Program-made: the position numbers and the translations under genes
The notes under the pieces: generated by a model
What the model saw: only the letters and a program-made list of their open reading frames with translations
Database searches by the model: none
Told to the model about the DNA's origin: nothing
Virus record (IMG/VR): IMGVR_UViG_3300031134_000466
DNA length: 64,000 nucleotides
DNA from: a virus
Lineage: Duplodnaviria > Heunggongvirae > Uroviricota > Caudoviricetes
Strand: one strand, 5' to 3'
Shown: in pieces, positions 1,570 through 62,312 of the stretch
Numbering within the stretch: the stretch's first letter is position 1
How the letters are laid out: each line of letters starts with the position of its first letter

Positions 1570-1635
1570 TTCATGAGTATGAATTGACCGATAAAGAGTA
1601 AGTAATTTCCTTTATCCCCTTGAAAGTTTCTATTC

Positions 1636-2751
1636 ATGCTTGCCCTCAATAAGGTTTTGCAGTCCTCTAAAGCTGCTATTGATTTAGCATCAATTATGGT
1701 TGGTGTCATCATCATTGGTTTGATCGGTGGTGTTATCGCTGCTACTGTTTTCGCTGTCATTCCTTGGTCTCAAGACAAAGCAGCGAAGCAGCAGCTGGAT
1801 TCTGTCCATACTGCAGAGAACGCGTTCTTTGGTTTATCCTCTGACCCAAGCCAGAATCTTGTTGGAGGCAAAAAGAACAGCTTTACGAACTCAGCTGAAT
1901 TAGCTTCAAATAATTTGCTGACTTCAAATGCTAACTACTGCGCAGTGAACACTGTTGACGGCAAAGACTACCACGCTTATGCTAAGTCTAGTTCAGGTAA
2001 AACATTCTATGCTTTGAACAGTAACAAACAAGCCCAGGTCTTCACTGGTGCCTACCCTTGTATCACTGATGCTAACGGAGTAGTTATTGTTGACCCTACC
2101 GTCGATAACGGCACAACTCCAGTGGGAACAACTCCTGGAACTGCCCCAACTACTCCTACCCCAACACCTGGTTCAGATTACGGAGTACCAGTCGGCACAG
2201 TAGTTTATTCTACTGATTTTGAAGGAGAAGCTTTCAACGCTCTTCCAGCTGGCTGGAATTACTATAATTCCAGCGGTACTAATGGCACTGGTGCGAACTT
2301 GAAAGTTAAGACAACAGACTCTAACGCAATATCCGCTAACCGGGCTCAATACTCTGGATTGTACGCAAACTTCAGTAGAATAAACGCCACAAAAGCCCTC
2401 GAAATGCGAAACGCAGCAAATAATGGTTATATAACCGGACCTACAGTAACTCTTACTCCAGGTACATATTCAGCTTCTGGTTATACGGCAAAAGGTGCAA
2501 ACGGTTCTTGGAACACCTGGACTTTGAGTGCTAAAAAAACTACTGGTGCAACAGTAGCATCGACAACATGGACTCCAGGGTTCCAATCTAACGGAGGGAC
2601 TTCAGCTTATGTTTGGGAGACCCATGGAGTAGATTTCACTGTAACAGAAGAAGGCACTTACTATCTCAACTGGACTGGAACTGATGCAGGGGAGACTACT
2701 TCTTATCTCATGATTGACGACGTGAAGATTATTAAGACCGGAACACTCTAA
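1636..2751 (+). CDS. Pilin/pseudopilin-like (TadE-like N-terminus) membrane-anchored surface protein, paralog A
   Basis: N-term basic stretch then AAIDLAS-IMVGVIIIGLIGGVIAATVF hydrophobic helix and VIPWSQDKAAKQQL, resembling type IV pilin/TadE N-terminal helix; Thr/Pro linker TPVGTTPGTAPTTPTPTPGS; C-terminal Gly/Thr-rich domain; first ~170 aa about 75% identical to the next ORF. Confidence 0.55.
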   Translation: MLALNKVLQSSKAAIDLASIMVGVIIIGLIGGVIAATVFAVIPWSQDKAAKQQLDSVHTAENAFFGLSSDPSQNLVGGKKNSFTNSAELASNNLLTSNANYCAVNTVDGKDYHAYAKSSSGKTFYALNSNKQAQVFTGAYPCITDANGVVIVDPTVDNGTTPVGTTPGTAPTTPTPTPGSDYGVPVGTVVYSTDFEGEAFNALPAGWNYYNSSGTNGTGANLKVKTTDSNAISANRAQYSGLYANFSRINATKALEMRNAANNGYITGPTVTLTPGTYSASGYTAKGANGSWNTWTLSAKKTTGATVASTTWTPGFQSNGGTSAYVWETHGVDFTVTEEGTYYLNWTGTDAGETTSYLMIDDVKIIKTGTL

Positions 2752-2846
2752 GTTATATAAAAATACGATAGAGATTCCAACAGTCAACTTAGAATCGTCG
2801 CAACCAATATCTTATCAAAATTATCCCCTAAAGAAAGTACCTAACT

Positions 2847-4235
2847 ATGCTTACCCTGAATAAGGTTTTGCAGTCCTCCAAAGCTGCTATTGACTTAGCT
2901 TCCATTATGGTTGGTGTCATCATCATTGGTTTAATCGGTGGAGTCATCTCAGCAACAGTTTTTGCTGTTATCCCTTGGTCCCAGGACAAAGCAGCAAAAC
3001 AGCAGTTAGAATCAATTCACACAGCTGAGAACGCTTTCTACGGCTTTAGTGCTGATGCGTCGACTACGCTGAAAAATAAAACAAACAGCACCCGCGAACT
3101 CAGGAATACATTTGCCGATTCAGCTGAACTGGCTTCCAACGCACTCCTGACATCAAACCCTAACTATTGTGTTGTACCTACTGCTGATGGCAAAGACTAT
3201 CACGCTTATTCAAAGTCTGGTTCAGGTAAGACTTTCTATGCTTTGAACAGCAACAAGCAAGCACAAGTTTTCACAGGCGCTTTCCCCTGTGTCGTTGACG
3301 CCTCTACTGGTGTTGTGGGTGTCGACCCAGCTGTAGACAACGGAACCTCCCCTGTAGGTGTTACTCCAGGAAGCACTGGCGGAACAGGTGGCGGAACAAC
3401 TGCACCTGGCACTGGTTCTGGTGGCACTGGCGGAGGAACAACTCCTACGGCTCCTGTGAATCCTCTTGCTTTGACCATCAACTGCCCTGCAAATATCAAT
3501 AAATATGCAACCCCAACAATTGATTTTGTCGGTAAAGCCCTTCTCAGCGATGGAGTAGAAAAAACTTACACGTCTCCTTCTAACCCAATTTTTGATGTCA
3601 CCCCAGGCAAAACTTACACTATTCAGATGACTGGTACTTACAGTCAGATGAGCAGTATTAGTGTAGCCAGTGCCCCTTGCTTGGTAAGTGTCGATTCATG
3701 GGGAGATACTTCTAAGTTCAACAACATCGCAAACGGTTTTTACGGTTCTACTAACTTAGTATCAGTTCCAGATACATTACCTCCGCTTATTACTACTTTA
3801 GCAAACACCTTTTACGGGGCAACTAAGTTCAACAGTCCCAACGTATCCAAATGGGACACCAGTAACGTAACAAAGATGAACAACACTTTCCGAGAAAATA
3901 CTGTGTTCAACCAAGATTTGAGCAAGTGGAACACCAGTAACGTAACAGATATGGTTGGTATGTTCTGGTTAGCTAATGCTTTCAATAGCAACATTAGTTC
4001 ATGGGACACCAGTAAAGTGACTGATATGTTTGCAATGTTCTACAAAGTGACATCGTTCAACCAAGACATCAGTGGATGGAACACCGTCAATGTGACTCGT
4101 ATGGCATCTATGTTTGATGGGGCTAAAGCTTTCAAGCAAAACCTGAGTGGATGGAATGTAGCGAAAGTTACAAATTATTCCAGCTTCAATACGAACGGCT
4201 TGTTGGTTGCAGCTGAACTTCCTAAGTTCAAGTAA
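2847..4235 (+). CDS. Pilin/pseudopilin-like anchored surface protein, paralog B, with C-terminal BspA/DUF285-type repeats
   Basis: Same N-terminal 170-aa module as paralog A; Gly-rich linker GSTGGTGGGTT...; about six repeats of the x(SKW/SSW/SGW)(D/N)TSNVT(x)M..MF..A..FNQDIS type typical of the Mycoplasma/BspA-like DUF285 LRR family. Confidence 0.55.
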   Translation: MLTLNKVLQSSKAAIDLASIMVGVIIIGLIGGVISATVFAVIPWSQDKAAKQQLESIHTAENAFYGFSADASTTLKNKTNSTRELRNTFADSAELASNALLTSNPNYCVVPTADGKDYHAYSKSGSGKTFYALNSNKQAQVFTGAFPCVVDASTGVVGVDPAVDNGTSPVGVTPGSTGGTGGGTTAPGTGSGGTGGGTTPTAPVNPLALTINCPANINKYATPTIDFVGKALLSDGVEKTYTSPSNPIFDVTPGKTYTIQMTGTYSQMSSISVASAPCLVSVDSWGDTSKFNNIANGFYGSTNLVSVPDTLPPLITTLANTFYGATKFNSPNVSKWDTSNVTKMNNTFRENTVFNQDLSKWNTSNVTDMVGMFWLANAFNSNISSWDTSKVTDMFAMFYKVTSFNQDISGWNTVNVTRMASMFDGAKAFKQNLSGWNVAKVTNYSSFNTNGLLVAAELPKFK

Positions 4236-4243
4236 CACTAATT

Positions 4244-4287
4244 AAATAGTTGAAGCCCTACTGAATTCAGTAGGGCTTCAACTATTT
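4244..4287. terminator. Perfect 22-bp-arm palindrome between convergent genes (bidirectional terminator candidate)
   Basis: aaatagttgaagccctactgaa|ttcagtagggcttcaactattt centred on GAATTC. Confidence 0.5.
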
Positions 4288-5107
4288 AACGACCGACATA
4301 ATGCTCTTTCAAAGCACTCCAAGACATAGGGATGATTTCCAAATCAAGAGTTGACAACTCCAAAAGAGCAAGGTTGTTTTTCGAACCATCCATGTCCAAC
4401 CCGATGCTGTGAAGAGTGTACTCATTCAGTCCATCATTCAGCACAGTTTCATGGTCTGCAAAGAAATGGTAATGACCATGAAGGAATAAGTCAGGTTTTA
4501 CTCCATCAACAGCTTGACGCATCATTGCACGTGACTGGTTTGCGTAACGCATCTCTGTTGGAGACCAGATACCATGGTCTTCTCGATGAGACCCGAACAG
4601 GTTCACCCCTGCAGGGCAGTCATGCGCCAGCATGATGTCAGCATGACCATGCATCACTGTCTTGAAGACATCATCCAGAGTAATCTGCTCAGCCTTCCAC
4701 CAGGTTCTATTCTCGGTACGACCAGTGAAGTCAATGCTGTTTGCTCCTCCAAGAGAGACAAAGGTACGACCATTCCACTCCCACCTTGCTCCACGGTCAG
4801 CTACAAGAATGTGAGGGTACTCAGGGTTGTAACGCCAGCCAGGGAACTGTGACGGTTGCAGCTGGCTGATTTGTACATAGTCCTCATGATTGCCCAAAGT
4901 CACGTACAAAACTTGCCCATTTGCCGCGAGACGTTTGTTAGTCTTGTAAAGATACTTTTGCCCATTGTTACCTGGCCAGAAACCGAAATCACCCAGATGA
5001 AGGATGTGCTTAATTCCAAGCTCAGCAAAACGTGCGATTGCGATACCAGCCCAGCCAGTATTACCATGCCAATCGCCTGCTACGCCAACAATGTCAAAAG
5101 TTTCCAT
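4286..5107 (-). CDS. Calcineurin-like metallophosphoesterase
   Basis: GDWHGN, GDFGFWPG, GNHED, HGHYH metal-ligand motifs in canonical order. Confidence 0.8.
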   Translation of the reverse strand: METFDIVGVAGDWHGNTGWAGIAIARFAELGIKHILHLGDFGFWPGNNGQKYLYKTNKRLAANGQVLYVTLGNHEDYVQISQLQPSQFPGWRYNPEYPHILVADRGARWEWNGRTFVSLGGANSIDFTGRTENRTWWKAEQITLDDVFKTVMHGHADIMLAHDCPAGVNLFGSHREDHGIWSPTEMRYANQSRAMMRQAVDGVKPDLFLHGHYHFFADHETVLNDGLNEYTLHSIGLDMDGSKNNLALLELSTLDLEIIPMSWSALKEHYVGR

Positions 5108-5148
5108 GACACAAGTGTATCACAGATGTTTGAAGAAAAGAACAAGAC

Positions 5149-5838
5149 TTAAGAACGCACAGCGATAGGGTTCAGTAAACCGTCAGTAGTTGGTGCCACT
5201 GGAGGGTTCTGCTCATCCCGTTCGGAAGAATACTTATTGGCGTTATCCATGAAGTCTTGGAAGGTTGGTTCTGAGAAAGCCATGCATGTTTGAGTTGCTC
5301 CCCATTGACTGAAAGCAATCAAACGACCAGAAGGCATGTCAGCATCAGCTGGCCAACTCAGAACAAGTAGCTTATCTTCATGAGTGTCATTCCATTTGTC
5401 AGCAAAGTCTCGAACGAACTCATACCCATCATCAGGGTAGTTAGTGGAAGTCCAAATAACTTTGTGACCTTCCCATTCAGCACGAAGAATCTCTTCGTTA
5501 CTGTAAGGATTACCTCGTGGTTCGATGCTCTCTATAGAGTCAGCGTCAAACGGAGCGGGTGACATGTACCCGTAAGCAGGGATAATCATTGGATGGCGGG
5601 GAACTTCTTCAGTGTAGTCTTCAGGAATGGTCCCGTACTGACCGTCCTTAGGGCTGAACACGAAAGTGTCACCACACTGGGTCAGGATACCGTTAGATGC
5701 GGGCGGAACACTGATACTGCCATAAGCGCTGTTCTGCTCAAGATTAGCTGAAGGTTGACTCAACGCTCCGAAAGCAAGCATAGAAACACCTGCCAGCAGA
5801 AAGCCAGACAAGATAAGTTTAGTTCCACGGTATAGCAT
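5149..5838 (-). CDS. Secreted protein of unknown function
   Basis: N-terminal signal peptide-like hydrophobic segment LILSGFLLAGVSMLAFGALS; no recognisable catalytic motif. Confidence 0.45.
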   Translation of the reverse strand: MLYRGTKLILSGFLLAGVSMLAFGALSQPSANLEQNSAYGSISVPPASNGILTQCGDTFVFSPKDGQYGTIPEDYTEEVPRHPMIIPAYGYMSPAPFDADSIESIEPRGNPYSNEEILRAEWEGHKVIWTSTNYPDDGYEFVRDFADKWNDTHEDKLLVLSWPADADMPSGRLIAFSQWGATQTCMAFSEPTFQDFMDNANKYSSERDEQNPPVAPTTDGLLNPIAVRS

Positions 5839-5887
5839 GATGACGTACTTATCGGCTTACACGTATAACCAGCCTATAATAGAGGTT

Positions 5888-6619
5888 ATGAATGATGTGG
5901 TTAGTGTCAACAGTCTGTTAGTGAAATACGAAGAGTTCACAGCAGTGAAAGATGTTTCTTTTTCCGTGGAAGCTGGTGAAGTGCGTGGTGTTCTGGGCGG
6001 AAACGGTGCAGGTAAATCCACAACCCTTCGAGTCCTTGGTGGAGTCATTAAACCCACCGCTGGTGAAATCACCATTGGAGGAGTGAGCACGAAAAGTTTC
6101 AAAGGCGCCAACAAAGCAAGAACGCTGACAGGGTATTGTCCTGACGTAGGTGGGCTTATTTCAGGAGCCACTCCTTTGGAACATGTTCGGCTTTTAGCTT
6201 CACTCCATCGAGACAAATCGCTGTATGAAAAAGGCCAAGTTGAAATCGAACGATTCAACTTAGCCGAATTTAAAAACACTCCAGTCTCTGGGTTCTCTCA
6301 CGGAATGATGAGACGACTCAGTGTTCTCCTTGCTTACATTTCAGCAGACAAATTACTCATTCTTGATGAGCCTTTCGACGGGGTTGACCCTCTTGGTGTT
6401 GACATTATTAACGCAGCTATCAGTGATGCTCGTGAAGCAGGCACAGCTGTCATTGTTTCCACACATCTTCAGAATCTTCTTGTTGATGTGTCAGACTCGG
6501 TAAACATCATGTCCAAAGGTGAACTGTTGCAGATTATCCCAGCTTCAGAGCTCATCGGTCCTGAAGGTGTGAACCGTTACACAACCATGCTGACTACCCA
6601 CACAGAGAAGAATGCATAA
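5888..6619 (+). CDS. ABC transporter ATP-binding protein (ABC-2/DrrA-like)
   Basis: Walker A GGNGAGKST, signature-like FSHGMMRRLSV, Walker B LLILDEPFDGVD, H-loop STHL; ATG at 5888 preceded by AGAGG; longer ORF begins 5837. Confidence 0.85.
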   Translation: MNDVVSVNSLLVKYEEFTAVKDVSFSVEAGEVRGVLGGNGAGKSTTLRVLGGVIKPTAGEITIGGVSTKSFKGANKARTLTGYCPDVGGLISGATPLEHVRLLASLHRDKSLYEKGQVEIERFNLAEFKNTPVSGFSHGMMRRLSVLLAYISADKLLILDEPFDGVDPLGVDIINAAISDAREAGTAVIVSTHLQNLLVDVSDSVNIMSKGELLQIIPASELIGPEGVNRYTTMLTTHTEKNA

Positions 6620-8191
6620 ATGAAACTGTTCTTTGCTGGGTTGAACGACTCATTCACTTTACTTGCCTTCCGTTTCGCTAACGCAAAACCATGGATGCAA
6701 ATAGCAGGCTTACTCTTCTTGCTTGGTGCAATCGGGGCTATTGCAGCGTCGCTGCAGACAACCTCATTCATCAGAGCAATCATGACAGCAACTCTGCCCG
6801 ATGATCCGACAGCAGAGACAGCCAGAGAGTTACAACAATTCCTGTCTGTATACCTGGAAATGTATACGACAGGTAACATGGAAGTATTCGTAACAGTAGC
6901 TGTAGCTCTGCTGTTAGGTTCCATTATCTTCGTACCGTTCTCAGGGTACGTAATTCACGGTATGGTGTCCCATAGTGAAATGGTTATTGTCAAGAATGGT
7001 GACACTTATAAAATCGGTGACAGTGTTCTGTTCCAGGTTATTTCATCCTTCACCCTTATCCAGCTCACTGGGTTGACCATTGCTGCCCAGCTGATAACTT
7101 TCGACTCGGCCTACCCTTCCTACGCTGTCATTTTTGCTTGGGGTATCTGGGTGTTCATGACAATCGTTACTGCTTTAGTTTCCTGGGTTGTCGAGTTCAT
7201 TTCCCGTAAGTTCGGTCGCAAAATGAGACTGTTGTTCTTAGGCATGTTCGTAGCAGTACTTGGACTTGTTCTGCTGATTGACCCTAAGCACGGAACCACA
7301 TTGTTCGGTGGAGCTAACACCGTGTTCGACTTCTTGAATCAGTTAGCAACTGGTGATGGAAAACTGCTGGTTGCATCGTTGGTCATCATTGCAGGCTTGA
7401 CAGCTGTTGCCATTTCAGCGTTGTCTTTGATGGCGTCACATACATTACAAATTCCAGAACCTTTGACGGTTTCTAAGACCAATGAGAAGCAAATCTCTGG
7501 AAGCTCTGTTCCTTTGAGTCCATTAGTGCTACTTACTCGTTTACTCTTCCGTTACAGCACTGTAACCAAACCAGTCATGACTTCCCTTGCATTCTCTCTC
7601 ATCATTGTTCTTCTACTCAAAGGTGAAAATGCTTTAACCACAACAATGATTGTGTTACCTCTTGCTGTTGGTGTTTCTTTCGGAGCGAACATCTTTGGTC
7701 TGATTAGCGGTTCAATCAACTGGTTGTTGTCAATCAACAAATGGCGGAGCAAGATGTTGAACGCTGGAATGATTGTCATTCTTGCCTCAATCGTCATCAT
7801 CTACGCTATTGTTTACGGCGTTGGTTTAGCTATTGGAACCATCGAATGGGACCAGTTGGTAAAAGTGATTCCCGCACTTATTTCTGTGACATCAGCAACA
7901 ACAATCATCTCCATCTACCTTTCAGTGAAGAAGCCTTTACCATTCTCAGGTAAATCTCGTGAGAACCTCATTTCTTCACCCACAGCTTTGATTGGTTATG
8001 TGTTTGTGCTGCTTGTCGGTGCCGGCGGTGCTGGTAACGTTGCACTCTTTGCCCCATCCCCATCATCATGGATTATCGCAGGAACAACACTGTTCATCAG
8101 CGTCATGAGCTACTTGTTACTTTACCGTACATGGATGAATACTGAAAAGTACACTAAGCGACTGTTGAAAGAAACCATCAACGCCGGTTAA
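6620..8191 (+). CDS. Polytopic membrane protein, probable ABC-2-type permease partner
   Basis: ATG overlaps/abuts the ATPase stop (TAAATG coupling); at least 10 predicted hydrophobic helices. Confidence 0.55.
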   Translation: MKLFFAGLNDSFTLLAFRFANAKPWMQIAGLLFLLGAIGAIAASLQTTSFIRAIMTATLPDDPTAETARELQQFLSVYLEMYTTGNMEVFVTVAVALLLGSIIFVPFSGYVIHGMVSHSEMVIVKNGDTYKIGDSVLFQVISSFTLIQLTGLTIAAQLITFDSAYPSYAVIFAWGIWVFMTIVTALVSWVVEFISRKFGRKMRLLFLGMFVAVLGLVLLIDPKHGTTLFGGANTVFDFLNQLATGDGKLLVASLVIIAGLTAVAISALSLMASHTLQIPEPLTVSKTNEKQISGSSVPLSPLVLLTRLLFRYSTVTKPVMTSLAFSLIIVLLLKGENALTTTMIVLPLAVGVSFGANIFGLISGSINWLLSINKWRSKMLNAGMIVILASIVIIYAIVYGVGLAIGTIEWDQLVKVIPALISVTSATTIISIYLSVKKPLPFSGKSRENLISSPTALIGYVFVLLVGAGGAGNVALFAPSPSSWIIAGTTLFISVMSYLLLYRTWMNTEKYTKRLLKETINAG

Positions 8192-12331: not shown

Positions 12332-13324
12332 ATGTCAGAAGAAAACAACCTCGAACCTCGTGAGCAGCAGCACCCAGCTTATGAGGCAATCAACTGGAAC
12401 AACGTCGATGAGTTCGACAACGCTGTTTGGCAGAAACTTACCAGTAACTTCTGGTTGCCAGAAAAAGTCTCTGTTTCCAACGACCGTAAAACATGGGAAA
12501 CCTTGTCTGATGCAGAAAAGAAGCTGGTTCTCCATGTCTTTACTGGTCTGACAATGCTTGACACCATTCAGGGTCGTTTCGGTGCTTTGAGTATTATGAA
12601 AGATGCAACTTCGTTGTTCGAAGAAGCTGTGTACACAAACATTGCGTTTATGGAGAATGTTCACGCTAAGAGCTACTCTTCTATCTTCTCTACTCTGTCC
12701 ACCACAAAGGACATTAACCAGTCCTTCAACTGGTCACAGCATAATGAGTTCCTTCGTAAGAAGGAAGAAATCATCATGTCCTACTACCGCGACACCGAGC
12801 ACCCTTTAGCTCCTCAGCGTCGTAAGATTGCTTCAACCCTGCTTGAATCCTTCTTGTTCTACTCAGGTTTCTACCTTCCTCTGTACATGAACTCACAGGC
12901 TAAGCTCACAAACTCAGCTGACATCATCAAGCTGATTATTCGTGACGAAGCAGTTCACGGTTTCTACATTGGTAAAAAGTACCAGGACAGCATTGAAGAA
13001 CTGGATGAGGCTACTAAAGCTGAACTCAAAGACTTCACCTACGAATTGCTTCTCGACTTGTTCGATAACGAAATTCGTTACACTCAGGACTTGTATGATG
13101 AGTTCGGTCTTACCGAAGACGTAATTGCTTTCTTGAAGTACAACGCAAACAAGGCTCTTGCTAACTTGGGCTATGAGCCTTTGTTCCCTGACCCTGAAGT
13201 ATCTGCAGCTATCACTTCGCAGCTCAACGCAGGTTCTGACACGCACGACTTCTTCAGTGGAAGTGGAGCATCCTACGTGATGACCACTCGTGAAGAGTTG
13301 GCTGAAGAGGACTGGGACTTCTAA
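12332..13324 (+). CDS. Ribonucleotide reductase class I small (beta/R2) subunit
   Basis: Two ExxH di-iron ligand motifs (MENVHAKSY, RDEAVHGFY), radical Tyr-region SYSSIF, C-terminal acidic tail EEDWDF. Confidence 0.9.
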   Translation: MSEENNLEPREQQHPAYEAINWNNVDEFDNAVWQKLTSNFWLPEKVSVSNDRKTWETLSDAEKKLVLHVFTGLTMLDTIQGRFGALSIMKDATSLFEEAVYTNIAFMENVHAKSYSSIFSTLSTTKDINQSFNWSQHNEFLRKKEEIIMSYYRDTEHPLAPQRRKIASTLLESFLFYSGFYLPLYMNSQAKLTNSADIIKLIIRDEAVHGFYIGKKYQDSIEELDEATKAELKDFTYELLLDLFDNEIRYTQDLYDEFGLTEDVIAFLKYNANKALANLGYEPLFPDPEVSAAITSQLNAGSDTHDFFSGSGASYVMTTREELAEEDWDF

Positions 13325-13347
13325 TCTACACTGACATGTAGCTTCTT

Positions 13348-13391
13348 AGGAGGGCTGACACTGAATACAAATTTTCAGTGTCAGCCCTCCT
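13348..13391 (+). terminator. 16-bp stem-loop after RNR gene
   Basis: aggagggctgacactg ... cagtgtcagccctcct. Confidence 0.5.
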
Positions 13392-13537
13392 TGTGTTAAC
13401 AGACCAGAAACGTATCCCATTAGCCGCAGACGCCCATCTGCTGCCCTAATACCCTTCATTCACTCAAGTGGACGGCTTACACTACCCAACCTCTTAGACG
13501 CCGTTTTAGTAAGAAACTGCTTTATAGGGTTACCGAG

Positions 13538-14050
13538 TTGCATTCTTCGGACCTTCCTGCTAAGGTAAGGAACATACAGTCCTTATTCGTTCCACCAGGA
13601 AGAAACAAAGCTTTTATGTTTGATGAGATTGGCTCGGCGCCTCAGACCCGGTACAAGCCCCGTGCGGGCGTTGTGCAGTTCCCTGAGAAGACTGCTCTTT
13701 CCAACCGTCAGCGTTCCTACCTGGATATTGCTGTTCGCCTCGCTGAGTCCTCGGATGCAAGCTTCAAGCACGGAGCAGTTATTGTTCGTGGCGGCAGCGT
13801 TCTTGCTGTCGGAGTGAACAAGTGGAAGAATCGTGACCTTCCTCCGACTCCCCCTGATGTGTACAACCCTGACATCACTGTCCACGCTGAGATTGATGCT
13901 CTTTCCCGAGTGAAGGACGCTCGCGGAACCACTGTCTACATTGCCCGAGTCACCCGTAGCGGCGACGAGCGTTTCTCTCGCCCCTGCAACCGTTGCGAGA
14001 AGGCTCTCATCGAGGCTGGAGTCAAGCGGGTCGTCTACACGGTAGGCTAA
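13538..14050 (+). CDS. dCMP/CMP deaminase (CDA fold)
   Basis: Zinc-binding HAE (HAEIDAL) and PCxxC (PCNRCEKAL) motifs with dCMP-deaminase spacing; true start may be an internal Met. Confidence 0.8.
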   Translation: MHSSDLPAKVRNIQSLFVPPGRNKAFMFDEIGSAPQTRYKPRAGVVQFPEKTALSNRQRSYLDIAVRLAESSDASFKHGAVIVRGGSVLAVGVNKWKNRDLPPTPPDVYNPDITVHAEIDALSRVKDARGTTVYIARVTRSGDERFSRPCNRCEKALIEAGVKRVVYTVG

Positions 14051-14394: not shown

Positions 14395-16512
14395 TTACAG
14401 TTCACGACGACCTGTACGCAGTTCACGAAGCATACGCTCGTAAGCATATCCTGTCATTTCAGCGTCATTGTAAGCACGGTGAGCGCCAAGGTAAGGAACA
14501 TTGTAGCGGGCAGTGAATGAAGAGAGCTTATCGTTCGGAACATCAGTCAGAAGACGACGAGACAGTTTCAAAGTGTCAAGAATTTTGATTTTCTTGTGCT
14601 TCACAGCATCAGCAAAACCAGGAACATGTGTGGACATCCAACGCTGTTCAAAAGTCTTGTTGTGAGCCATCATGATACCAACATTTGTCAGCTGGTCAAG
14701 AACAGCAGTACCTTCAGCAGGGTTCAAGAACTGACGCTTCTTCGCAATCTGAGTTTCAGTAATACCATGCACTTCACTGTTGCCTGTGCTGCGAGTCAGG
14801 AGAGCTTTCTTCGAAAGACCGTAAAGCTTGCTTGTCTTAGCTTTCTCAGTGTCATTACGAGTCAGAGTAGAGTTACGGTAGTTGGTACGAACGGATGCAC
14901 CATACTCGATGATGCTACCTGAAGTAGGCTGAGAACCGGCAGTTTCCAAATCAACACTCACATAGTCAGGAAGCGTTTCCTGCTTAGCTGCCGTGACGTA
15001 GAGGCTACGAAGCTGAGCCGCAACATAGGTTCGGTCTTTGCGATTCTCATCATCGAAGTTGCCAGCAAACTCCTGCTCAACAACCTTAGAATCAACACCA
15101 CGCATTGTTGCAACTTCAGTGAAGATTTCCTGCTTCTCTTTGTTACTCAAGCTGGAGTTCAGAGCGTTCTGAGAGAAACCACGAGCGCGGTTACGTCCTT
15201 CCCAAGTACCAGCCTTACGGGAAGCAAGCTCGGTGTTGAACTTCTTCACAGCTTCAAGGTTGCCAGCAGCTTCCTGCTCAAGCTCAGGAGTCATAGTGAA
15301 ATGGTATTCACGGTATTCACGGTCGTCAATGACAACTGCAACCATACCACGCTTGAAACCAGCAGCCTGAGCATACCAAAGAGTCTGAGCTCGGTAAGTG
15401 TCAGGAACACCATCCAAACCATCTTCAGGGTTACCCCATTTGCCAGCAACAGAAGCAGTCTTGATTTCGACAATACCGTCAGGGTTACCATCCTTGTCAG
15501 CCATCAGACCGTCAAAGTTAGCAAACTGGAACTCGTTCTCGTTGTGCTTCCAAGAAGACTTGCAGAAAGTGATGTTGTCGTCAGGGTTGTTCTGCACAAC
15601 CTGGAGGAAGATTCGCTTCTCCCAAGCGTTACCACGACCAGCCGCGCCAGCATACTCTTCGTTGTTCAGTGCCTGCTCAGCAACCTGCTCATCAGTGATG
15701 GGTTCAAGCTTGGACTGCATGATTTCTTCATAGCTGTTGTAAGCACCCTTGACTCGCTTGATGGCTCCAACATCTGAACCACCAATACCTTTCTGACGCT
15801 GCTCAAGCCATTCACGAGTACCTGACTCGAACTCAGCAGTCTTAGTGAGTTCATTCAGCGTCTCTTTGTCATACTCACGCCATTCGCCAGCTTCACGAAG
15901 ACGGTTCTCTTCAAGGTCGGCAAGGTGAGCCACAACAGGTGCTGCAACGTCTTTGTACTCGTTAATCTGACGGCGGAGGAGACTGACTTCTTCGTTGATG
16001 TCAATCATCGCAAGTTCCTTCTGACGAACATCTTCGTAAAGGAACGCAGGGTCTTCTTCCCACTTCTTCTTCAGAAGGTCACGGTCAGCTTTAGTCTCCT
16101 CAAGAAGCTGCATGTTTGCATCACGCTTCTCAAGCAGGGCAGTAAAGTCTTCAGAGTTGATACGGTCCTGGATGAAGCTTTCCATGGCTTCCTCATCACC
16201 TGATTCAATCAGGCGGGCAGCTTCAGCTTTATCCTCTTCAACGGTCTTCAGAGCTTTCTGGTGACCGTAGGAACTAACAGGAGTGTAGGTACGCTCCATA
16301 GCTTCCTTCAAAATAGACATAGCAAGCAGGCTCTCAACATCGTTTGTGTTGTTCAGCTGCTTCTCAACCAGCTCAGCATTCTTGTGCTGATGATACTGGT
16401 ACTCAGTCATGTGTTCTCCGTTTATCAGTGTGCATTTCTTCTGTGCAGGGCAACGGACCCAATCGCCTTGCCTCTTGCCTGATTGCTGTTTATGGTAGTT
16501 CTTCATGGTCAA
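14395..16512 (-). CDS. Dual exonuclease: YqaJ/lambda-Exo-like PD-(D/E)xK domain fused to C-terminal DnaQ-like DEDDh 3'-5' exonuclease, with N-terminal coiled-coil
   Basis: GIGGSDVGAI motif, DG...DGIVEIK, Y..Q.Q (YqaJ family); then DLETAG (Exo I), AHNKTFE (Exo II), HRAYNDAEMT (Exo III, DEDDh). Confidence 0.7.
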   Translation of the reverse strand: MTMKNYHKQQSGKRQGDWVRCPAQKKCTLINGEHMTEYQYHQHKNAELVEKQLNNTNDVESLLAMSILKEAMERTYTPVSSYGHQKALKTVEEDKAEAARLIESGDEEAMESFIQDRINSEDFTALLEKRDANMQLLEETKADRDLLKKKWEEDPAFLYEDVRQKELAMIDINEEVSLLRRQINEYKDVAAPVVAHLADLEENRLREAGEWREYDKETLNELTKTAEFESGTREWLEQRQKGIGGSDVGAIKRVKGAYNSYEEIMQSKLEPITDEQVAEQALNNEEYAGAAGRGNAWEKRIFLQVVQNNPDDNITFCKSSWKHNENEFQFANFDGLMADKDGNPDGIVEIKTASVAGKWGNPEDGLDGVPDTYRAQTLWYAQAAGFKRGMVAVVIDDREYREYHFTMTPELEQEAAGNLEAVKKFNTELASRKAGTWEGRNRARGFSQNALNSSLSNKEKQEIFTEVATMRGVDSKVVEQEFAGNFDDENRKDRTYVAAQLRSLYVTAAKQETLPDYVSVDLETAGSQPTSGSIIEYGASVRTNYRNSTLTRNDTEKAKTSKLYGLSKKALLTRSTGNSEVHGITETQIAKKRQFLNPAEGTAVLDQLTNVGIMMAHNKTFEQRWMSTHVPGFADAVKHKKIKILDTLKLSRRLLTDVPNDKLSSFTARYNVPYLGAHRAYNDAEMTGYAYERMLRELRTGRREL

Positions 16513-18429: not shown

Positions 18430-21147
18430 ATGGCCACCCTCATCGGCGTATCAGGAAAAATTGCGTCAGGTAAAGATTACTTGACTGACAAGCTTGTAAA
18501 CGAACTGAAACGTCTTGGTTTTACCATCGACTACACAGCCTTCGCTGCACCCCTGAAGCAGGAACTCAACGAAATCATCTCTCTGATTCGAGCTTTCCCT
18601 GAACAGGATGAACTGACTCTTTCTTTCTCCATCGCTCGTAATCTGGACATCAACTACGATGATGCTCTTCTGATTGCTACTAATCTGAGAACAGAAGTGC
18701 TTGCAGATGAAACTCTCAACGGTTACTCACGAACAGTCAAAATTCGTGAATCTCTTCAGTATCTTGGTACAGAGATTCGCAGGAAGCAGCGTCCTGAATA
18801 CTGGACTGACTTGTTCTTGAACTTCGTCAACAATTCAGAAACAGATTTCATTTTCGTTTCAGATGCACGTTTTCCTAATGAAATGGACACGGTTGTCGAC
18901 AATCAAGGTGTTGCTCTACGTCTTGACATTCCAGAAGAAGTTCTTGCAGAGCGTCGAAACAAGCGTGACGGCATCAAATACACTGATGAGCAGTTGAATC
19001 ATATCTCAGAAACTGCACTGGATGATTACACCAAATTTGACATGATGATTGGTGTGCAGTTCAACGAACGTGAAATCGTAGAGAATATCCTGAAAAAAGT
19101 TGAACGACTTCAGGAACTTCCTGCAAAAGCTTCTCGCGTCCTGAAAGCCAAAATCGCAGAGCATACACCTTCAGTGTCAGATAAGAAAGATGTTTACCCA
19201 GAGGTGAATTTACCTGAAGGCCAGTACAAAGTGTTGTCTTTGTTTGCAGGTGCAGGTGGATTAGATTTAGGTTTTGAGTTAGCTGGATTAGAAGCAGTTC
19301 ACGGTAAAGAAAAAGTGGACGCTGCTTACAAAGACAAAAAAGCATTTGACGAGCTCCGCAAAGAGAACCTCATTCACACGGTCTACGTAAATGACAACTT
19401 CAAAGATGCAATAGCTTCCTACCGTCAGAACTTTCCTGAAACGTTTATTGACGAACGAGATATCAAAAAAATCAGCAGCTTCCCTGATGCAGACCTTCTG
19501 TTAGGTGGATTCCCTTGCTTCCCTAAAGGAACAGGTGTAGCTACAGAGACAGGTTACAAAAACATTGAAGATGTCGAGAAAGGTGATTTTGTTCTCACTC
19601 ATGAAGGTCGTTACCGTGAAGTAACAGACACCATGACACGCAATGTGAACAAATCAGCCACTCTACATGCTTACGGTTCTCTTCCTTTGGTCTCAACGGT
19701 GAATCATCCTTACTGGGTGAAAGAAACTGTCGATTCTGAACCTAAATGGGTTCATGCTGAGAACATTCAGCCAGGTTGGTTTGTGTCTCATCCAATCAGC
19801 ACATTCAGTACAGATGAAGTAACCGAAAAAGAAGCCAAGTTTGCTTACTTAGCCGGCGTCTTCGCTCAGTGTGGTACAAAAACTTTGAACGACGAGCACA
19901 AGCCAAGCTATCTCACTCCTTACAATGATGAGGAGTTCCTGGCTTTGCTGGCTGAAATTGATGCTGTCTGTTCAAAAGAAGGCAAAAACGTCATCGTCCA
20001 CAGTGAACAGCTGAACAAGATGATGAAATTGTTCGGAACTACCAAATGGAACAAAGTCATTCCTGAAGAGGTCCACCAGAAACCACGAGCTTGGCAGAAA
20101 GCTTTCCTTGACGGCTTCCTGTTCCACAACTCTGACCAGGAAGTGCACAGCAAGAACTTGGCTGTTGGCGTGGCTCGAATTATTCGTAGTTTGAACCCTA
20201 CACAGGATGTTATCGTGTCCTCACCCAAATACAGTTCCTGGATTGTAACTGCAACTGACACTACCGTAGCTCATCATGATGACAACTATGTATGGGTTCC
20301 TGTGGAGCGTTTGCAAGTAAGAAACGAAATGGGAGTACTTCCTGTTTACGATATTACTGTAGCCGAAGACGAATCATTCGTAGCAGATGGATTTGTAGTT
20401 CACAACTGCCCTGGCTTCTCAGCAGCAGGTCTTCGCATGTTAGATGACCCTCGCAACTTCCTGTACCTGCATTTCGTACGAGCTGTTGTTGACGCTCAAC
20501 CAAAGATTTTCGTAGCAGAAAACGTAAAAGGTCTACTCACTCATGGTCAAGGTGAAGCTTTCAACCAGATAGTCGAAGACTTTGCAGCAGCAGGTTACAC
20601 CATCTACTACAAGCTGATGAAAGCAATTCAGCATGGTGTACCTCAGATGAGAGAGCGATTGATTATTGTTGGTGTGCGAAACGACATTGATTTTGAATAC
20701 CAGCATCCTGCTGCCACTCATGGTGAAGGTCTACTTCCATACAAAACTCAAAGAGACGCTTTCTACGATTTGAGGGACCTGAACGATGAACACTACGAAG
20801 GAGACTTCTCTTCTCGCTACCGTTCCAGAAGGTTCAAACTGGACTGGGATGTACCGTCAAAGACCATTTTGGCAACAGGGCGGCACCTGCCTTTGCACCC
20901 TGACGGAGTGCCTCAGGAGAAGCTGGAGCAGGACTTGTGGAGTTTAGACGCTGCAGACCGTAGATTCACTGTAAGAGAAGCTGCACGAATCCAGACATTC
21001 CCTGACTGGTATGATTTCGTGACAACCTCTCGCGGAACAACCAACACAGTCCTGGAGAAACAGTACCGTCAGATAGGTAACGCTGTTCCTGTCGAACTGG
21101 GACGAGTTGTTGCTGAACCTATTGTTCAGTTCCTGAAAAGTCTGTAA
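18430..21147 (+). CDS. Fusion protein: T4 gp1-like dNMP kinase (N-terminal) + DNA (cytosine-5)-methyltransferase interrupted by an intein
   Basis: N-term GVSGKIASGKDY...AAPLKQEL and SDARFPNEMD match dNMP-kinase P-loop and DxR motifs; MTase motif I FAGAGG, motif IV GGFP-C...PGFSAAG (split by intein), ENV (motif VI), QMRER (VIII), GNAVPV (X); one continuous frame. Confidence 0.85.
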   Translation: MATLIGVSGKIASGKDYLTDKLVNELKRLGFTIDYTAFAAPLKQELNEIISLIRAFPEQDELTLSFSIARNLDINYDDALLIATNLRTEVLADETLNGYSRTVKIRESLQYLGTEIRRKQRPEYWTDLFLNFVNNSETDFIFVSDARFPNEMDTVVDNQGVALRLDIPEEVLAERRNKRDGIKYTDEQLNHISETALDDYTKFDMMIGVQFNEREIVENILKKVERLQELPAKASRVLKAKIAEHTPSVSDKKDVYPEVNLPEGQYKVLSLFAGAGGLDLGFELAGLEAVHGKEKVDAAYKDKKAFDELRKENLIHTVYVNDNFKDAIASYRQNFPETFIDERDIKKISSFPDADLLLGGFPCFPKGTGVATETGYKNIEDVEKGDFVLTHEGRYREVTDTMTRNVNKSATLHAYGSLPLVSTVNHPYWVKETVDSEPKWVHAENIQPGWFVSHPISTFSTDEVTEKEAKFAYLAGVFAQCGTKTLNDEHKPSYLTPYNDEEFLALLAEIDAVCSKEGKNVIVHSEQLNKMMKLFGTTKWNKVIPEEVHQKPRAWQKAFLDGFLFHNSDQEVHSKNLAVGVARIIRSLNPTQDVIVSSPKYSSWIVTATDTTVAHHDDNYVWVPVERLQVRNEMGVLPVYDITVAEDESFVADGFVVHNCPGFSAAGLRMLDDPRNFLYLHFVRAVVDAQPKIFVAENVKGLLTHGQGEAFNQIVEDFAAAGYTIYYKLMKAIQHGVPQMRERLIIVGVRNDIDFEYQHPAATHGEGLLPYKTQRDAFYDLRDLNDEHYEGDFSSRYRSRRFKLDWDVPSKTILATGRHLPLHPDGVPQEKLEQDLWSLDAADRRFTVREAARIQTFPDWYDFVTTSRGTTNTVLEKQYRQIGNAVPVELGRVVAEPIVQFLKSL
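19516..20406 (+). mobile_element. Intein (297 aa) with LAGLIDADG homing-endonuclease motifs, inserted at the catalytic Pro-Cys of MTase motif IV
   Basis: Starts with Cys (CFPKGTGVATETG...GDFVL block A), block B TVNH, two dodecapeptide motifs (YLAGVFAQCGT; FLDGFLFHNSD), ends VVHN followed by +1 Cys; excision restores GGFPCPGFSAAG. Confidence 0.8.
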
Positions 21148-21762
21148 TCAGTTGATGGCGTGAATGCGGTTCAACGGCCACATCACGAACTTAGGCTGGC
21201 CCAGGATGCTATCCACTGGCACGAAAGGGTCATTAGGGTGGTACCTGGAGTCAGCTGAGTTCAACCGGTTGTCGCCCAGGACAAACACTTGCCCTGCTGG
21301 GACAGTGTAAGAGAATTCTTTGTTGACATCGTTCACACCATCTTTGATGTAATTCTCATTAAGTTCCTCGCCATTGAGAAGAAGCTTCCCATCATCAGAG
21401 CAGCAAGAGATGGTGTCACCACCAACAGCTATCACACGTTTCACAAACACTGTTCCAGCAGGTTCACCCCAAGATGCTGGAGGGTTGAAAACGACAACAG
21501 TGCCACGGTCAGGAGCCTGCCTGTTGTCCAAAGCAGGAACAGATACCATGTAATCCTTGACTTGCAAAGTATTCGTCATGGAGGAAGAAGGGACAACATA
21601 GCTGTCCACGAAGAATAGATTCAGAATGATTCCTACTACCAGACCAAAGATGATCGTGTCGAGGAAACCAATTTTGTGTTTTTTCTTAGAACGAGTTACA
21701 ACCTCAGAGGAGGGGGTAATGTCGTCGTCCATCAAAATTCTTCCTATCATTACAGTAACCAT
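21148..21762 (-). CDS. Signal peptidase I (S26 family)
   Basis: N-terminal TM anchor, catalytic Ser box SSSMTNTL, Lys box VFVKRVIAVGGD, box D/E GDNRLNSADSRY. Confidence 0.8.
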   Translation of the reverse strand: MVTVMIGRILMDDDITPSSEVVTRSKKKHKIGFLDTIIFGLVVGIILNLFFVDSYVVPSSSMTNTLQVKDYMVSVPALDNRQAPDRGTVVVFNPPASWGEPAGTVFVKRVIAVGGDTISCCSDDGKLLLNGEELNENYIKDGVNDVNKEFSYTVPAGQVFVLGDNRLNSADSRYHPNDPFVPVDSILGQPKFVMWPLNRIHAIN

Positions 21763-21881: not shown

Positions 21882-23186
21882 TTGATTTCAACACTACGAC
21901 ACTCCCAGAAATTTCAAGACAGCTTTGTTGTCTGGATTTTTGTACTTCTTTTCGCCGGTCAGGGTTTCAGGAACCTAATCGGCCTCATCTGTTACGGCAC
22001 TATCAGCCTGGTGACTGTAAGCGTAGCCGTTTGGCTCTTTTGGAATACCTGGAGTAAACGCCGAACCCCGTTTTTGCTGGGTGCTTTTGTAACTTTAGCA
22101 GCTCTGTCCACAATTTGGTCCACTTACCGTCTGGAAACATTCATAGCCAGTATCATTCTGGCGGCCACCAGCCTCATAGGACTTTTAGTTGCCTCAGCTT
22201 ACAAATGGAAAAAACTGATAGTCCTTTTAGGTTACGGACTGCAAATCTGCGTGGTCGGCAGTTTAGTCTTTGAAACAATCGTCGCCACTGTGTTTAGGAG
22301 ACCAGTTCTACCTGTCTTCATGGAATTTGTGGGCCTTACTGACATTGAGAAAAATTCTGGTGTGTTGAACTGGTCAGAGAACAATTTGTTTGCAGGTGGT
22401 CCAATTCAGGGTTTCATGGGTAACAGAAACTTGTTAGGTTTTGTTGCATTGCTTCTAATTGTTGTGTCAGTAGTGACTTTGTTGGAGAAACTCACAAACA
22501 AATGGGTGAGCCTTAGCTGGATAGCTGTAGGGTTAGGAACACATTTTCTGACAGTCTCAGCTACCATCTCTTTGGCTCTGCTGGCTGTTGTCATCATCGT
22601 TGCTGGTGCGATGTTTATACGATTTACGCCAGAAAAGTTCAGACGGATAACATCCTGGTCCTTCGTGGGACTCTGTATCGTTCTTGGTGTTGCTGCGTTG
22701 AAGAACTACGACAAACTGTTTGGTGTTTTTGACCGTGACCCGAACCTTACTAACCGCACTGAAATCTGGAAACGAGTGGCTGATCTGGCTTTGCAGAAAC
22801 CTGAAGGTTGGGGATGGGTTAGTTACTGGCCTGTATGGAAAGAGCCTTTCAACGGAATACTCACATTAGGTGGAGTGCCTGTAGCTCATGCCCATAATGC
22901 ATATTTGGATGTATGGTTCCAACTGGGTGTAGTTGGCGTCATTCTTCTAGCAGCTATGACTTTGTACATTTTAGGAAGCTCTTGGCGTTTAGTGGAACAT
23001 GCAGGAAGGAGTTCAAGCTTCTTACCTCTTGGTTTGTTCCTTCTTGGTGGTTGCTTGTTCATTCAAGCTCTTACAGAATCCCGTCTGCTACTTGAGGGTA
23101 ATTGGATGCTGTTGACTGTGTTGCTTGTGTATACGCCATCTGCTTTCCGAAAAACAAACCTGAAGGCGTTAGAGCCGATATCGTAA
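21882..23186 (+). CDS. O-antigen ligase/Wzy_C-family polytopic membrane protein (PglL/PilO-like O-oligosaccharyltransferase candidate)
   Basis: About 10 TM helices and a periplasmic-loop motif AHAHNAYLDVWFQLGVVG matching the Wzy_C H-N-x-x-L signature. Confidence 0.55.
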   Translation: MISTLRHSQKFQDSFVVWIFVLLFAGQGFRNLIGLICYGTISLVTVSVAVWLFWNTWSKRRTPFLLGAFVTLAALSTIWSTYRLETFIASIILAATSLIGLLVASAYKWKKLIVLLGYGLQICVVGSLVFETIVATVFRRPVLPVFMEFVGLTDIEKNSGVLNWSENNLFAGGPIQGFMGNRNLLGFVALLLIVVSVVTLLEKLTNKWVSLSWIAVGLGTHFLTVSATISLALLAVVIIVAGAMFIRFTPEKFRRITSWSFVGLCIVLGVAALKNYDKLFGVFDRDPNLTNRTEIWKRVADLALQKPEGWGWVSYWPVWKEPFNGILTLGGVPVAHAHNAYLDVWFQLGVVGVILLAAMTLYILGSSWRLVEHAGRSSSFLPLGLFLLGGCLFIQALTESRLLLEGNWMLLTVLLVYTPSAFRKTNLKALEPIS

Positions 23187-24300: not shown

Positions 24301-24391
24301 TCTCAATTAGGTGTTATGGGAACCTGTGAAAAGCTTGTTAATTACCGATACTTTTTTCAGCTACCTAACCCCCTTAGAGAGAAGAATCTGT

Positions 24392-62238: not shown

Positions 62239-62312
62239 TCACAAAAACGTGCTTTTTCGTCAATATGACGATATACTGTAATAAGAATGGTCTAAGGAAG
62301 GAAACCCGTATC

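Follow-up and report, generated by a model that had tools for sequence, protein, structure and literature searches.

A family of probable modular type IV pilins with exchangeable C-terminal modules on a replicon that is most likely a giant actinophage

Three paralogous genes with a common N-terminal module

The window studied here, a stretch of 64,000 nucleotides (nt) from the IMG/VR virus record IMGVR_UViG_3300031134_000466, carries three open reading frames (ORFs) whose products begin with the same module and end in unrelated sequences. All three lie on the plus strand: A (1636-2751; 371 amino acids, aa), B (2847-4235; 462 aa) and C (24392-26083; 563 aa counted from the ATG). Our results support the view that the common module is a type IV pilin, and that A, B and C are probably modular pilins of a replicon that is most likely a giant phage with pilus genes of its own. 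The original prediction, made from the sequence alone, had placed three ORFs with similar N-termini at exactly these coordinates, and both blastp and tblastn agree with it. A and B are 77% identical over 171 aa (blastp, E 1e-73), and A and C are 49% identical over 128 aa (E 1e-27). Using the first 70 aa as a tblastn query against the window retrieved exactly A, B and C, and no fourth copy. The stretch common to the three proteins reads AAIDLASIMVGVI(I/V)IGLIGGVI(A/S)ATVFA(V/I)IPW(S/A)QDKAAK. What had been said of A, B and this motif is borne out, but C shares the whole module of about 130-150 aa and not just the first ~60 aa. A Cys pair is kept in all three modules (C102/C142 in A, C108/C148 in B and C122/C155 in C), so that the small pilin head would hold a disulfide. 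A, B and C are paralogs with an N-terminal module of about 150 aa in common and unrelated C-termini.

At the DNA level, the ~85% identity originally estimated over 200 nt comes close for A and B (83.5% in their first 200 nt, the longest exact run being 29 nt), but the A/C and B/C comparisons give 70-71% over the module core. Codons 1-66 of A and B include 24 that differ synonymously and 5 that differ non-synonymously, which indicates purifying selection. C could alternatively start at GTG 24311, which would lengthen it by 27 aa; a purine-rich sequence, GAGAGAAG, precedes the ATG at 24392.

The three products fit the architecture of modular pilins, in which a pilin module is joined by a linker to a separate C-terminal module. 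The leader of A comprises 13 polar residues, MLALNKVLQSSKA (1636-1674), and corresponds to the leader part of a class III signal peptide in an alignment with 116 homologs that carry Gly at the same junction. It is followed by the pilin module (aa 14-159; 1675-2112), which consists of the alpha1N helix AIDLASIMVGVIIIGLIGGVIAATVFAVIPW, alpha1C and a small beta-sheet head containing Cys102 and Cys142. A Thr/Pro-rich linker, TTPVGTTPGTAPTTPTPTPGSDYGVP (aa 160-186; 2113-2193), with a model confidence (pLDDT) below 50 in both models, leads to a C-terminal beta-sandwich of the carbohydrate-binding-module (CBM) type (aa 187-371 and the stop codon; 2194-2751). B has a 13-residue leader, MLTLNKVLQSSKA (2847-2885), a pilin module with Cys108 and Cys148 (aa 14-166; 2886-3344), a Gly/Thr/Pro-rich linker read from the sequence (aa 167-208; 3345-3470), and a DUF285/PARCEL (BspA-like) repeat module that extends to the stop codon (3471-4235). 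The leader of C, MSAGSTHPTIQNYTKIRAAFSSSQA (24392-24466), is 25 residues long, and its length and AF motif are those of the Gly-terminated class, but it ends in Ala. It precedes the pilin module with Cys122 and Cys155 (aa 26-166; 24467-24889) and about 400 aa of orphan C-terminal sequence, which contains 8 Cys and, internally, a PPGGDDGGGD linker (24890-26083, including the stop codon).

Evidence for a type IV pilin module

A, B and C begin with a class III signal peptide, that is, a polar leader ending in Ala and followed by about 25 hydrophobic residues. The N-termini of A and B read MLxLNKVLQSSKA followed by AIDLASIMVGVIIIGLIGGVIAATVFAVIPW, and the leader of C ends in SSSQA. The leader of type 4 pilins has been described as hydrophilic, as one that "invariably ends with Gly or Ala", and as followed by 20-25 hydrophobic residues (PMC10191384). 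In A, the cleavage site is predicted to lie between Ala13 and Ala14, giving a mature protein that would start with AIDLAS. An acidic residue near the start had been noted in the original prediction; it is indeed present, as an Asp at +3 of the mature protein and not as the canonical Glu at +5. This Asp (AID) is invariant in 120 of 120 sequences, as are AIDLAS and most of alpha1N.

Among the profile models searched, the best match to the N-terminal 45-50 residues was NCBIfam GspG (TIGR01710). It aligned with residues 17-62 of all three proteins at weak, sub-threshold levels (E 0.002-0.02, the lowest value being that of C; 15-18 bits against a cutoff of 88.85 bits). AlphaFold2, run on residues 1-172 of A with 120 homologs, returned a model with a pLDDT of 82.5 in which a 65-residue helix (4-68) is followed by a small beta-sheet. 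This long N-terminal alpha-helix with an antiparallel beta-sheet head is the "lollipop" fold of pilins, and the head resembles those of T4a pilins and GspG/K-type pseudopilins. A homology search with residues 1-160 of A recovered 223 proteins, mostly of 150-200 aa, many of which are labelled "pseudopilin PulG" (COG2165) by JGI. Moreover, A, B and C hardly differ in their alpha1N helix from the major pilins of their lineage. Altogether, these data support the assignment of the module to the type IV pilins, as a form that curated signatures do not recognise. Cleavage by signal peptidase I at SKA-A or SQA-A was also considered and was rejected, although the window encodes an S26 peptidase, because the site would be cytoplasmic, ahead of the hydrophobic segment.

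C-terminal modules

As the original prediction had it, with a Gly/Thr/Asn-rich domain in A, DUF285 repeats in B and a 10-Cys domain in C, the three C-termini are unrelated to one another. DUF285 in B is the only Pfam domain detected among the three proteins, and the match is strong (PF03382, E 1.3e-54, 183.5 bits against a cutoff of 25). B also matches the PARCEL repeats of TIGR02167 (E 2.4e-30, 103.8 bits against a cutoff of 30) and PHROG 17273 (E 6.6e-41). These profile matches identify the C-terminal module of B as a genuine DUF285 repeat domain. The module of A has a CBM-like fold and a weak, sub-threshold match to a choice-of-anchor-J model of NCBIfam. A word-indexed search found no homologs of the A and C modules, and three distant relatives of the A module came up in an exhaustive search only. 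The orphan region of C has no match in Pfam, NCBIfam or PHROG and no homolog beyond its own 90% cluster; of the 10 Cys of C, 2 belong to the pilin module and the other 8 to this region. By likeness to PilB and PilC of Streptococcus sanguinis, modules of this kind may be displayed on a filament and bind ligands.

Three genes with a bearing on the cell envelope lie within the otherwise phage-like window. One encodes a Wzy_C O-antigen-ligase-like protein (21882-23186, plus strand) and ends 1.2 kb upstream of C. Wzy_C enzymes include the pilin O-glycosyltransferases PilO and PglL, and it is plausible that the Thr/Pro linkers of A and B are targets of this protein. The others are a signal peptidase I (Peptidase_S26, E 1e-36; 21148-21762, minus strand) and a secreted protein with an LPXTG-type anchor (41294-42706, plus strand).

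Homologs and leader classes

Two classes of leader exist in the family. Of 117 database homologs, 116 carry a 25-residue leader that ends in Gly (position -1). Ala at -1 is found in A, B, C, the protein P0047 and eight long proteins (360-1057 aa) scattered in the genome of Leifsonia sp. Leaf264. In most members of the Ala(-1) class, position -2 is Arg or Lys and the leader is 13 residues long, following ML+LxxxL+SS(R/K)A. The leader of C combines the two classes: its 25 residues follow the Gly-class pattern, but the last of them is Ala. When metagenome DNA was scanned for AAIDLASIMVG, 73 loci with 103 Ala(-1) genes were found, and the complete ones all encode mature proteins of 290-720 aa. Alternative C-terminal cassettes behind the same module, which the original prediction had suggested looking for, are abundant in Leaf264, at the metagenome loci and in a Pfam census of 55 non-redundant Ala(-1) members. 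The census counted DUF285 in 15 members, CBM_4_9 in 8, RCC1 in 5, He_PIG in 2 and Sortilin/BNR in 2, while about half had no Pfam match. An exhaustive profile search yielded 729 clusters at 50% identity, 646 of them at E ≤ 1e-10. All 54 new Ala(-1) cluster representatives are modular, and Gly(-1) representatives are both short and long. A strict rule by which Ala(-1) proteins are long and Gly(-1) proteins short was rejected, since many Gly(-1) representatives are long. The rule holds in one direction: the short Ala(-1) leader always accompanies a modular protein.

The presence of the family in related elements and in likely host lineages agrees with what the original prediction would lead one to expect. 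Cellular members are confined to Microbacteriaceae (Leifsonia sp. Leaf264, Frigoribacterium, Curtobacterium and two metagenome-assembled genomes, MAGs), with the single exception of a 1.5-kb contig binned as Armatimonadota. Leaf264, a cultured leaf isolate, encodes at least eight scattered Ala(-1) modular pilins (NZ_LMMR01000005.1 and NZ_LMMR01000001.1), whose modules include RCC1, BNR/Sortilin propellers (two BNR proteins), DUF285, CBM_4_9 and others. The same genome has one short Gly(-1) pilin adjoining a T2SSE ATPase. The low-GC form of the family (45-46%) was absent from 185,579 species-representative genomes searched for exact peptide motifs, yet it recurs in many metagenomes.

Pilus gene clusters on related contigs

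Cluster mates (at least 90% identity) of A, B, C and the Hsp70 of the window lie on the JGI contig Ga0308164_10000007 (788,683 bp), which has the A/B locus at 408-429 kb and a complete pilus gene cluster at 145-166 kb. This cluster (L023, 1-20564) encodes two T2SSE ATPases of 716 and 438 aa, a T2SSF platform protein, an A24-like peptidase and five short Gly(-1) pilins in tandem. It also contains four minor-pilin-like genes, one of them of 844 aa, and four tRNA genes immediately after the pilins. Similar clusters are found at L003 and at L090/L067. At L003, a 637-kb JGI contig, two T2SSE ATPases, a T2SSF platform and a 271-aa membrane protein are followed by eleven tandem paralogs. Seven of these are short and four, of 330-360 aa, have a CBM_4_9-type C-terminus; all carry AF(K/R)NE(A/E)G directly before AIDLASIMVG. 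The membrane protein of L003 and its L023 homolog share the motif GSGGDLKF and match the whole Peptidase_A24 profile (E 2e-4 and 7e-4), below the gathering score. These candidate peptidases have no methylase domain, in which they are like TadV-type enzymes (PMC10191384). The platform protein is single and PilC-like (408-424 aa, with two T2SSF stretches).

The type of replicon with near-identical copies of A, B and C encodes ATPases, a platform and a peptidase beside pilins of the same family. The short pilin gene of Leifsonia, like that of one Microbacteriaceae MAG, has a T2SSE Walker A motif 2-3 kb upstream. The suggestion that A, B and C supply tip proteins to a host pilus is not required, given that this replicon type has its own ATPases, platform, peptidase and major-pilin array.

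Modular pilins are numerous on these replicons. Ga0308164_10000007 carries 21 Ala(-1) modular pilin genes distributed over 14 separately fetched pieces, and two further contigs, of 883 and 879 kb (Ga0308161_1000006, 883,042 bp, and Ga0308164_10000004, 878,612 bp), carry 15 and 11-12. The large contigs of this type range in size from 0.64 to 0.88 Mb.

Gene content of the carrier replicon

Directly upstream of the segment that corresponds to the left end of the window, where an SNF2 helicase gene is followed by A and B, the related replicon L024 encodes a 737-aa HATPase_c protein and a 576-aa RIIB-like protein (3400-7833). The latter matches PHROG 609 (E 7e-50), and its best GenBank matches are in Microbacterium and Arthrobacter phages of 186-194 kb, at 39-44% identity. 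The two genes look like an rIIA/rIIB pair, the rIIA assignment being putative and based on domain content. A related contig of 78.5 kb (Ga0247807_10000090; L067, 730-10008) packs 38 tRNA genes into about 10 kb, with duplicated or triplicated isoacceptors (Phe x3, Asn x3, Trp x2 and others). Genes for tRNA(CUA), of the amber-suppressor type, occur at two further loci (L046, 4329-4401; L057, 10656-10728), and TAG is rare as a stop codon in the window (4 of 68 predicted genes).

The window itself is 92% coding, and neither an Rfam scan nor a tRNA scan of it found anything. Its T4-like auxiliary genes encode a dNMP kinase, a dCMP deaminase, two T4-type RNA ligases, PNKP, RNase H, Nrd (the small subunit of ribonucleotide reductase) and three ADP-ribosyltransferase-like proteins. 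Further genes encode the SNF2 helicase, a C5 methylase fused with the dNMP kinase and an intein, the nucleotidase NT5C, MazG, a PARP with a WGR domain, a RecE/YqaJ protein, a DEDDh exonuclease, NucS and Hsp70; the DnaK and NucS proteins are of the actinobacterial type. Many ORFs of the window and of the replicon have no Pfam or PHROG match. Taken together, the putative rIIA/rIIB pair, the T4-like enzymes, the 38-tRNA array, the suppressor tRNAs and the absence from the genome collection point to a very large actinophage as the most likely carrier. Hence, the replicon of about 0.8 Mb is, in our estimation, probably a giant phage of Microbacteriaceae-like actinobacteria.

Several other features of the window deserve mention. 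The methylase fusion is a 905-aa ORF (18430-21147, plus strand) whose N-terminus is dNMP-kinase-like and which also contains an intein (with Hint and intein-splicing domains) and a C-5 cytosine DNA methylase. An N-terminal tag of the form C-x7-8-C-x1-2-H (for example MCYPKPGPRCSAHAA) heads four otherwise unrelated enzymes, namely the three ADP-ribosyltransferase-like proteins and the NT5C nucleotidase (23434-24246, 28539-29579, 30500-31465 and 51758-52729), and looser matches occur at 14395-16512 and 54122-55363. The pattern has no match past residue 60 in 15.5k residues, and N-termini like these are found elsewhere in the replicon too; a role of the tag in metal binding or targeting is possible. 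NAD-related genes are also abundant (26372-27676, 28539-29579, 30500-31465, 51758-52729, 56409-59624 and 62265-63158). Besides a PARP catalytic domain with WGR and the three ADP-ribosyltransferase-like proteins, they encode a cytidylyltransferase-like (NMNAT-type) domain within a protein of 507 aa (58101-59624); two ORFs that are paralogs of each other (56409-57374 and 62265-63158) look NAD synthetase-like by eye only. NAD+ systems are known from jumbo phages, which these genes bring to mind.

Upstream motif, likely terminator and gene gain or loss

The motif CCGATAA lies 48 nt upstream of the ATG of A (1588-1594, plus strand), and CCGATAC lies 47 nt upstream of that of C (24345-24351, plus strand). 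CCGATA[AC] occurs eight times in the window (at 1588, 5849, 17528, 24345, 29981, 32907, 34267 and 52766). Seven of the eight matches are intergenic if C is started at ATG 24392; the remaining one (5849-5855, minus strand) falls within the opening codons of a divergent gene. The usual distance to the start codon downstream is 14-55 nt. At other loci, too, many family genes are preceded by the motif, and its placement makes it a candidate promoter element of the replicon. In addition, most Ala(-1) genes have CCCC...GAAAG 8-20 nt before the ATG.

Between B and a convergent metallophosphatase gene there is a hairpin, AAATAGTTGAAGCCCTACTG-AATT-CAGTAGGGCTTCAACTATTT (4246-4290), which is likely a bidirectional terminator. 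The hairpin also marks the right boundary of a cassette difference. The window and L024 are collinear at 93-96% identity save for a 1,423-bp segment present in L024 only (12603-14025, corresponding to 4237-4241 of the window), located between the B stop codon and the terminator hairpin. At its left junction there is a terminator-arm-like remnant, CAACTATTTAAC. The segment encodes a third tandem paralog of 425 aa. Its leader ends in SSKA before AIDLAS, a He_PIG domain lies further on, the end is CBM-like, and over the first 430 nt the identity to A is 80%. This difference indicates the gain or loss of a whole gene at the A/B locus. Recombination between N-terminal repeats was rejected as the source of this indel, because its ends lie at the B stop codon and the terminator. 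The original prediction had seen the repeated module as a recombinogenic direct repeat; the case for this is weak, with exact runs of at most 29 nt and intergenic and terminator ends in the sole cassette indel, and recombination between module repeats is possible but unsupported.

Discussion

In this study, we characterized three paralogous genes of a phage-like element that the original prediction had described as a polymorphic minor-pilin or adhesin family, with a pilin-like module and swapped tips. Our data strengthen that description, and neither of the outcomes it had named as refuting, a lack of pilin-like HMM or structural similarity in ordinary signal-anchor proteins or absence from related elements and hosts, was observed. 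We consider it probable that A, B and C are modular type IV pilins of a self-equipped replicon, most likely a giant phage, with about 20 such genes. By analogy with type IV pilus assembly, the prepilin would be inserted into the membrane, and the divergent A24 prepilin peptidase, which lacks a methylase domain, would remove the leader at the cytoplasmic face, between Ala and Ala-Ile-Asp in the Ala(-1) class and after Gly in the other. The subunit would then enter the filament via its alpha1N helix, driven by a PilB/PilC-type machine. Since a bulky module is unlikely to pack in the filament body, modular pilins would be placed at the tip or sparsely along the filament. The pilus would thereby present one of many alternative binding heads, which in the case of A might bind glycans.

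A number of observations weigh against this reading. Glu, which occupies +5 of mature type 4 pilins "often, but not always" (PMC10191384), is absent from the family, where +5 is Ala or Ser by register. The module had been likened to TadE pseudopilins, but neither TadE (PF07811) nor N_methyl (PF07963; IPR012902) matches A, B or C at E ≤ 1, and membership in either family was rejected on these grounds. N_methyl was likewise not among the families found at E ≤ 0.001 in 10 cellular and 55 metagenomic paralogs. In the suggested check by structure prediction, the AlphaFold2 model has the helix and sheet of a pilin; Foldseek found no significant match in the PDB, with pilins ranked first. A family profile gave nothing significant among PDB sequences (PilE1, E 0.3), and the full-length model of A is moderately confident (pLDDT 61). 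The pilus machinery lies outside the window and is linked to A, B and C through near-identical genes on another contig. As for the phage, no capsid, portal or terminase gene was detected in about 0.64 Mb of fetched, redundant sequence, where 30 proteins were compared with PHROGs and the structural region of Microbacterium phage Zooman served as the tblastx target. No relatives were found in IMG/VR with peptide patterns and an exact DNA pattern, nor among GenBank phages by tblastn with the module and megablast with 20 kb of the window.

The lack of virion genes in the fetched pieces would also suit a cellular replicon. The 0.8-Mb contigs could be one or more chromosomes, or fragments of them, from an uncultured actinobacterium with a small genome, and A, B and C would then be chromosomal genes in a phage-derived or flexible island. 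Pilus clusters normally belong to cells, genomes of Microbacteriaceae include the family, the DnaK and NucS of the window are actinobacterial, and the contigs vary in size. Against this reading speak the rIIB-like gene and the putative rIIA-like HATPase_c gene that flank the A/B locus, the 38-tRNA array with triplicated isoacceptors, the tRNA(CUA) genes and the low Pfam coverage of called genes (18-50%) in every fetched piece, as well as the 21 modular pilin genes dispersed over 14 separately fetched pieces of one contig. Exact motifs of the family at 45% GC were found in none of the 185,579 species representatives, although many metagenomes contain such contigs. A search of 644 kb for ribosomal, RNA polymerase, EF-Tu and rRNA motifs gave none, but as a regex-only test it is weakly informative. 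Altogether, we regard a chromosomal origin as a minority possibility, with something like a quarter of our confidence.

If the replicon is viral, as it looks, its pilins might serve superinfection exclusion, with phage-encoded tip or minor pilins masking or replacing the tip used by competing pilus-binding phages. The diversity of the C-termini would then mirror competition between phages and not adhesion. FimU-like minor pilins of prophages do enter the pili of Pseudomonas aeruginosa, block tip-binding phages and are highly diverse (PMC12952977), and the repertoire described here is hypervariable, with cassettes gained and lost. The known cases, however, are plain minor pilins that substitute for one host subunit, whereas here at least 20 large modular pilins, a complete machinery and a major-pilin array share one replicon. 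CBM, DUF285, RCC1 and BNR are typical ligand-binding domains, and the occurrence of the same two-class family and modules in cultured Leifsonia sp. Leaf264 favours a cellular function such as adhesion. For these reasons, exclusion seems to us an improbable role.

It is also conceivable that the proteins are simple signal-anchored (type II membrane) surface proteins whose N-terminus is a mere tether that never polymerises. A single N-terminal hydrophobic helix would suffice for this purpose, and the lack of a canonical N_methyl signature and of Glu at +5 also points this way. A tether needs neither near-identity to the alpha1N helix of major pilins, nor the invariant AIDLAS junction, nor a conserved alpha1C and the beta-sheet head of the pilin fold. 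Furthermore, the leader class aligns with the Gly(-1) cleavage site of pilins encoded in pilus operons, and a membrane-tethered ectodomain of 300 aa would barely reach the surface of a thick-walled monoderm. We therefore judge a role as plain anchors quite unlikely. Identity as TadE/TadF-type pseudopilins of a Tad/Flp pilus, to which a methylase-less peptidase and the small residues at the start of the mature N-terminus might point, is very improbable in view of the missing PF07811 match, a single PilC-like platform (408-424 aa) in place of a TadB/TadC pair, two T2SSE ATPases (438 and 716 aa), a head domain like that of T4a pilins and GspG/K-type pseudopilins, and the far smaller size of Flp-type pilins.

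Modular pilins are a recently recognised route to many jobs from one filament. The proteins described here are of this known kind, but their family escapes the signatures, has an unusual class of leader and is exceptionally expanded. With no N_methyl match, a leader ending in Ala and an Asp at +3, the family shows that signature-based catalogues miss whole lineages, and it extends the strategy to at least 20 interchangeable heads per replicon. Leifsonia sp. Leaf264, which is in culture and has the same two-class system, offers a ready experimental model. What interests us most in our interpretation, and is at the same time least secure, is the probable giant phage with a pilus system of its own. 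On this reading, a phage of 0.8-0.9 Mb would possess a complete type IV pilus system, with extension- and retraction-type ATPases, a platform, a methylase-less peptidase, a major-pilin array and canonical minor pilins, in addition to at least 20 modular pilins whose heads (CBM, DUF285, RCC1, BNR, Ig or orphan) are interchangeable. We advance this full picture tentatively, as one that falls slightly short of an even call. If it is correct, the infected cell would be re-equipped with viral, programmable filaments for adhesion or uptake, which goes beyond tweaking a host pilus. The carrier would be the first observed case of a virus with a full pilus apparatus of its own, and its genome would be among the largest known for phages, extending their upper size range. 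It would also open a new view of giant phages at the cell surface, in adhesion, aggregation, DNA or nutrient capture and the exclusion of rivals.

Comparison with known systems

Among the closest known systems are the modular pilins, of which more than 1,200 proteins with 264 architectures have been catalogued via IPR012902, their modules being argued to be tip-exposed (Raynaud et al., 2021; PMC8179133). In S. sanguinis, PilB carries a vWA module and PilC a lectin module (PMC8179133; Shahin et al., 2023, PMC9934059). The family of A, B and C shares with them an N-terminal pilin module, a short linker and a bulky functional module, as well as carbohydrate-binding folds among the commonest modules, a monoderm setting and a proposed exposure at the tip. 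Long leaders on major pilins and short ones on modular or minor pilins are likewise common to both. Unlike the catalogued proteins, the present family has no IPR012902/N_methyl signature and hence would have been missed by that census. In addition, a whole subclass has a leader ending in Ala, Asp at +3 takes the place of Glu at +5, and the peptidase lacks a methylase domain. Whereas model systems encode one or two modular pilins per genome, there are at least 21 per replicon here, and the carrier is probably a virus.

Pilins encoded by viruses have precedents. P. aeruginosa prophages encode FimU-like minor pilins, and PilA-like genes occur in lytic phages as well as in Xylella prophages (Sztanko et al., 2026; PMC12952977). 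If the present carrier is a phage, its family resembles them in being phage-borne, in having products that would use the pilus assembly pathway, and in its high diversity between related phages. The FimU-like pilins, however, are single, non-modular, fully dependent on the host machinery and devoted to anti-phage defence, whereas tens of mostly modular pilins are accompanied here by ATPases, a platform and a peptidase on the replicon. PilA1 and PilA2 of the Natrinema provirus SNJ2 form the dominant filaments on the host surface and alter adhesion and motility (Xiang et al., 2025; PMC12426801). If the carrier is viral, they resemble A, B and C in being virus-encoded type IV pilins; they are archaeal, however, comprise two plain pilins without modular tips and hijack the host machinery.

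Two further comparisons concern parts of the proteins. The alpha1 helix is similar to that of the GspG/PulG major pseudopilins (TIGR01710; COG2165), but the organisms in question are monoderms without an outer membrane, and paralog arrays and modular C-termini are not features of type II secretion systems (T2SS). Finally, DUF285/PARCEL surface proteins share their module with B and with 15 of the 55 surveyed paralogs. Such proteins are usually anchored as lipoproteins or in other ways, whereas in this family the carrier of the repeats is a pilin module.

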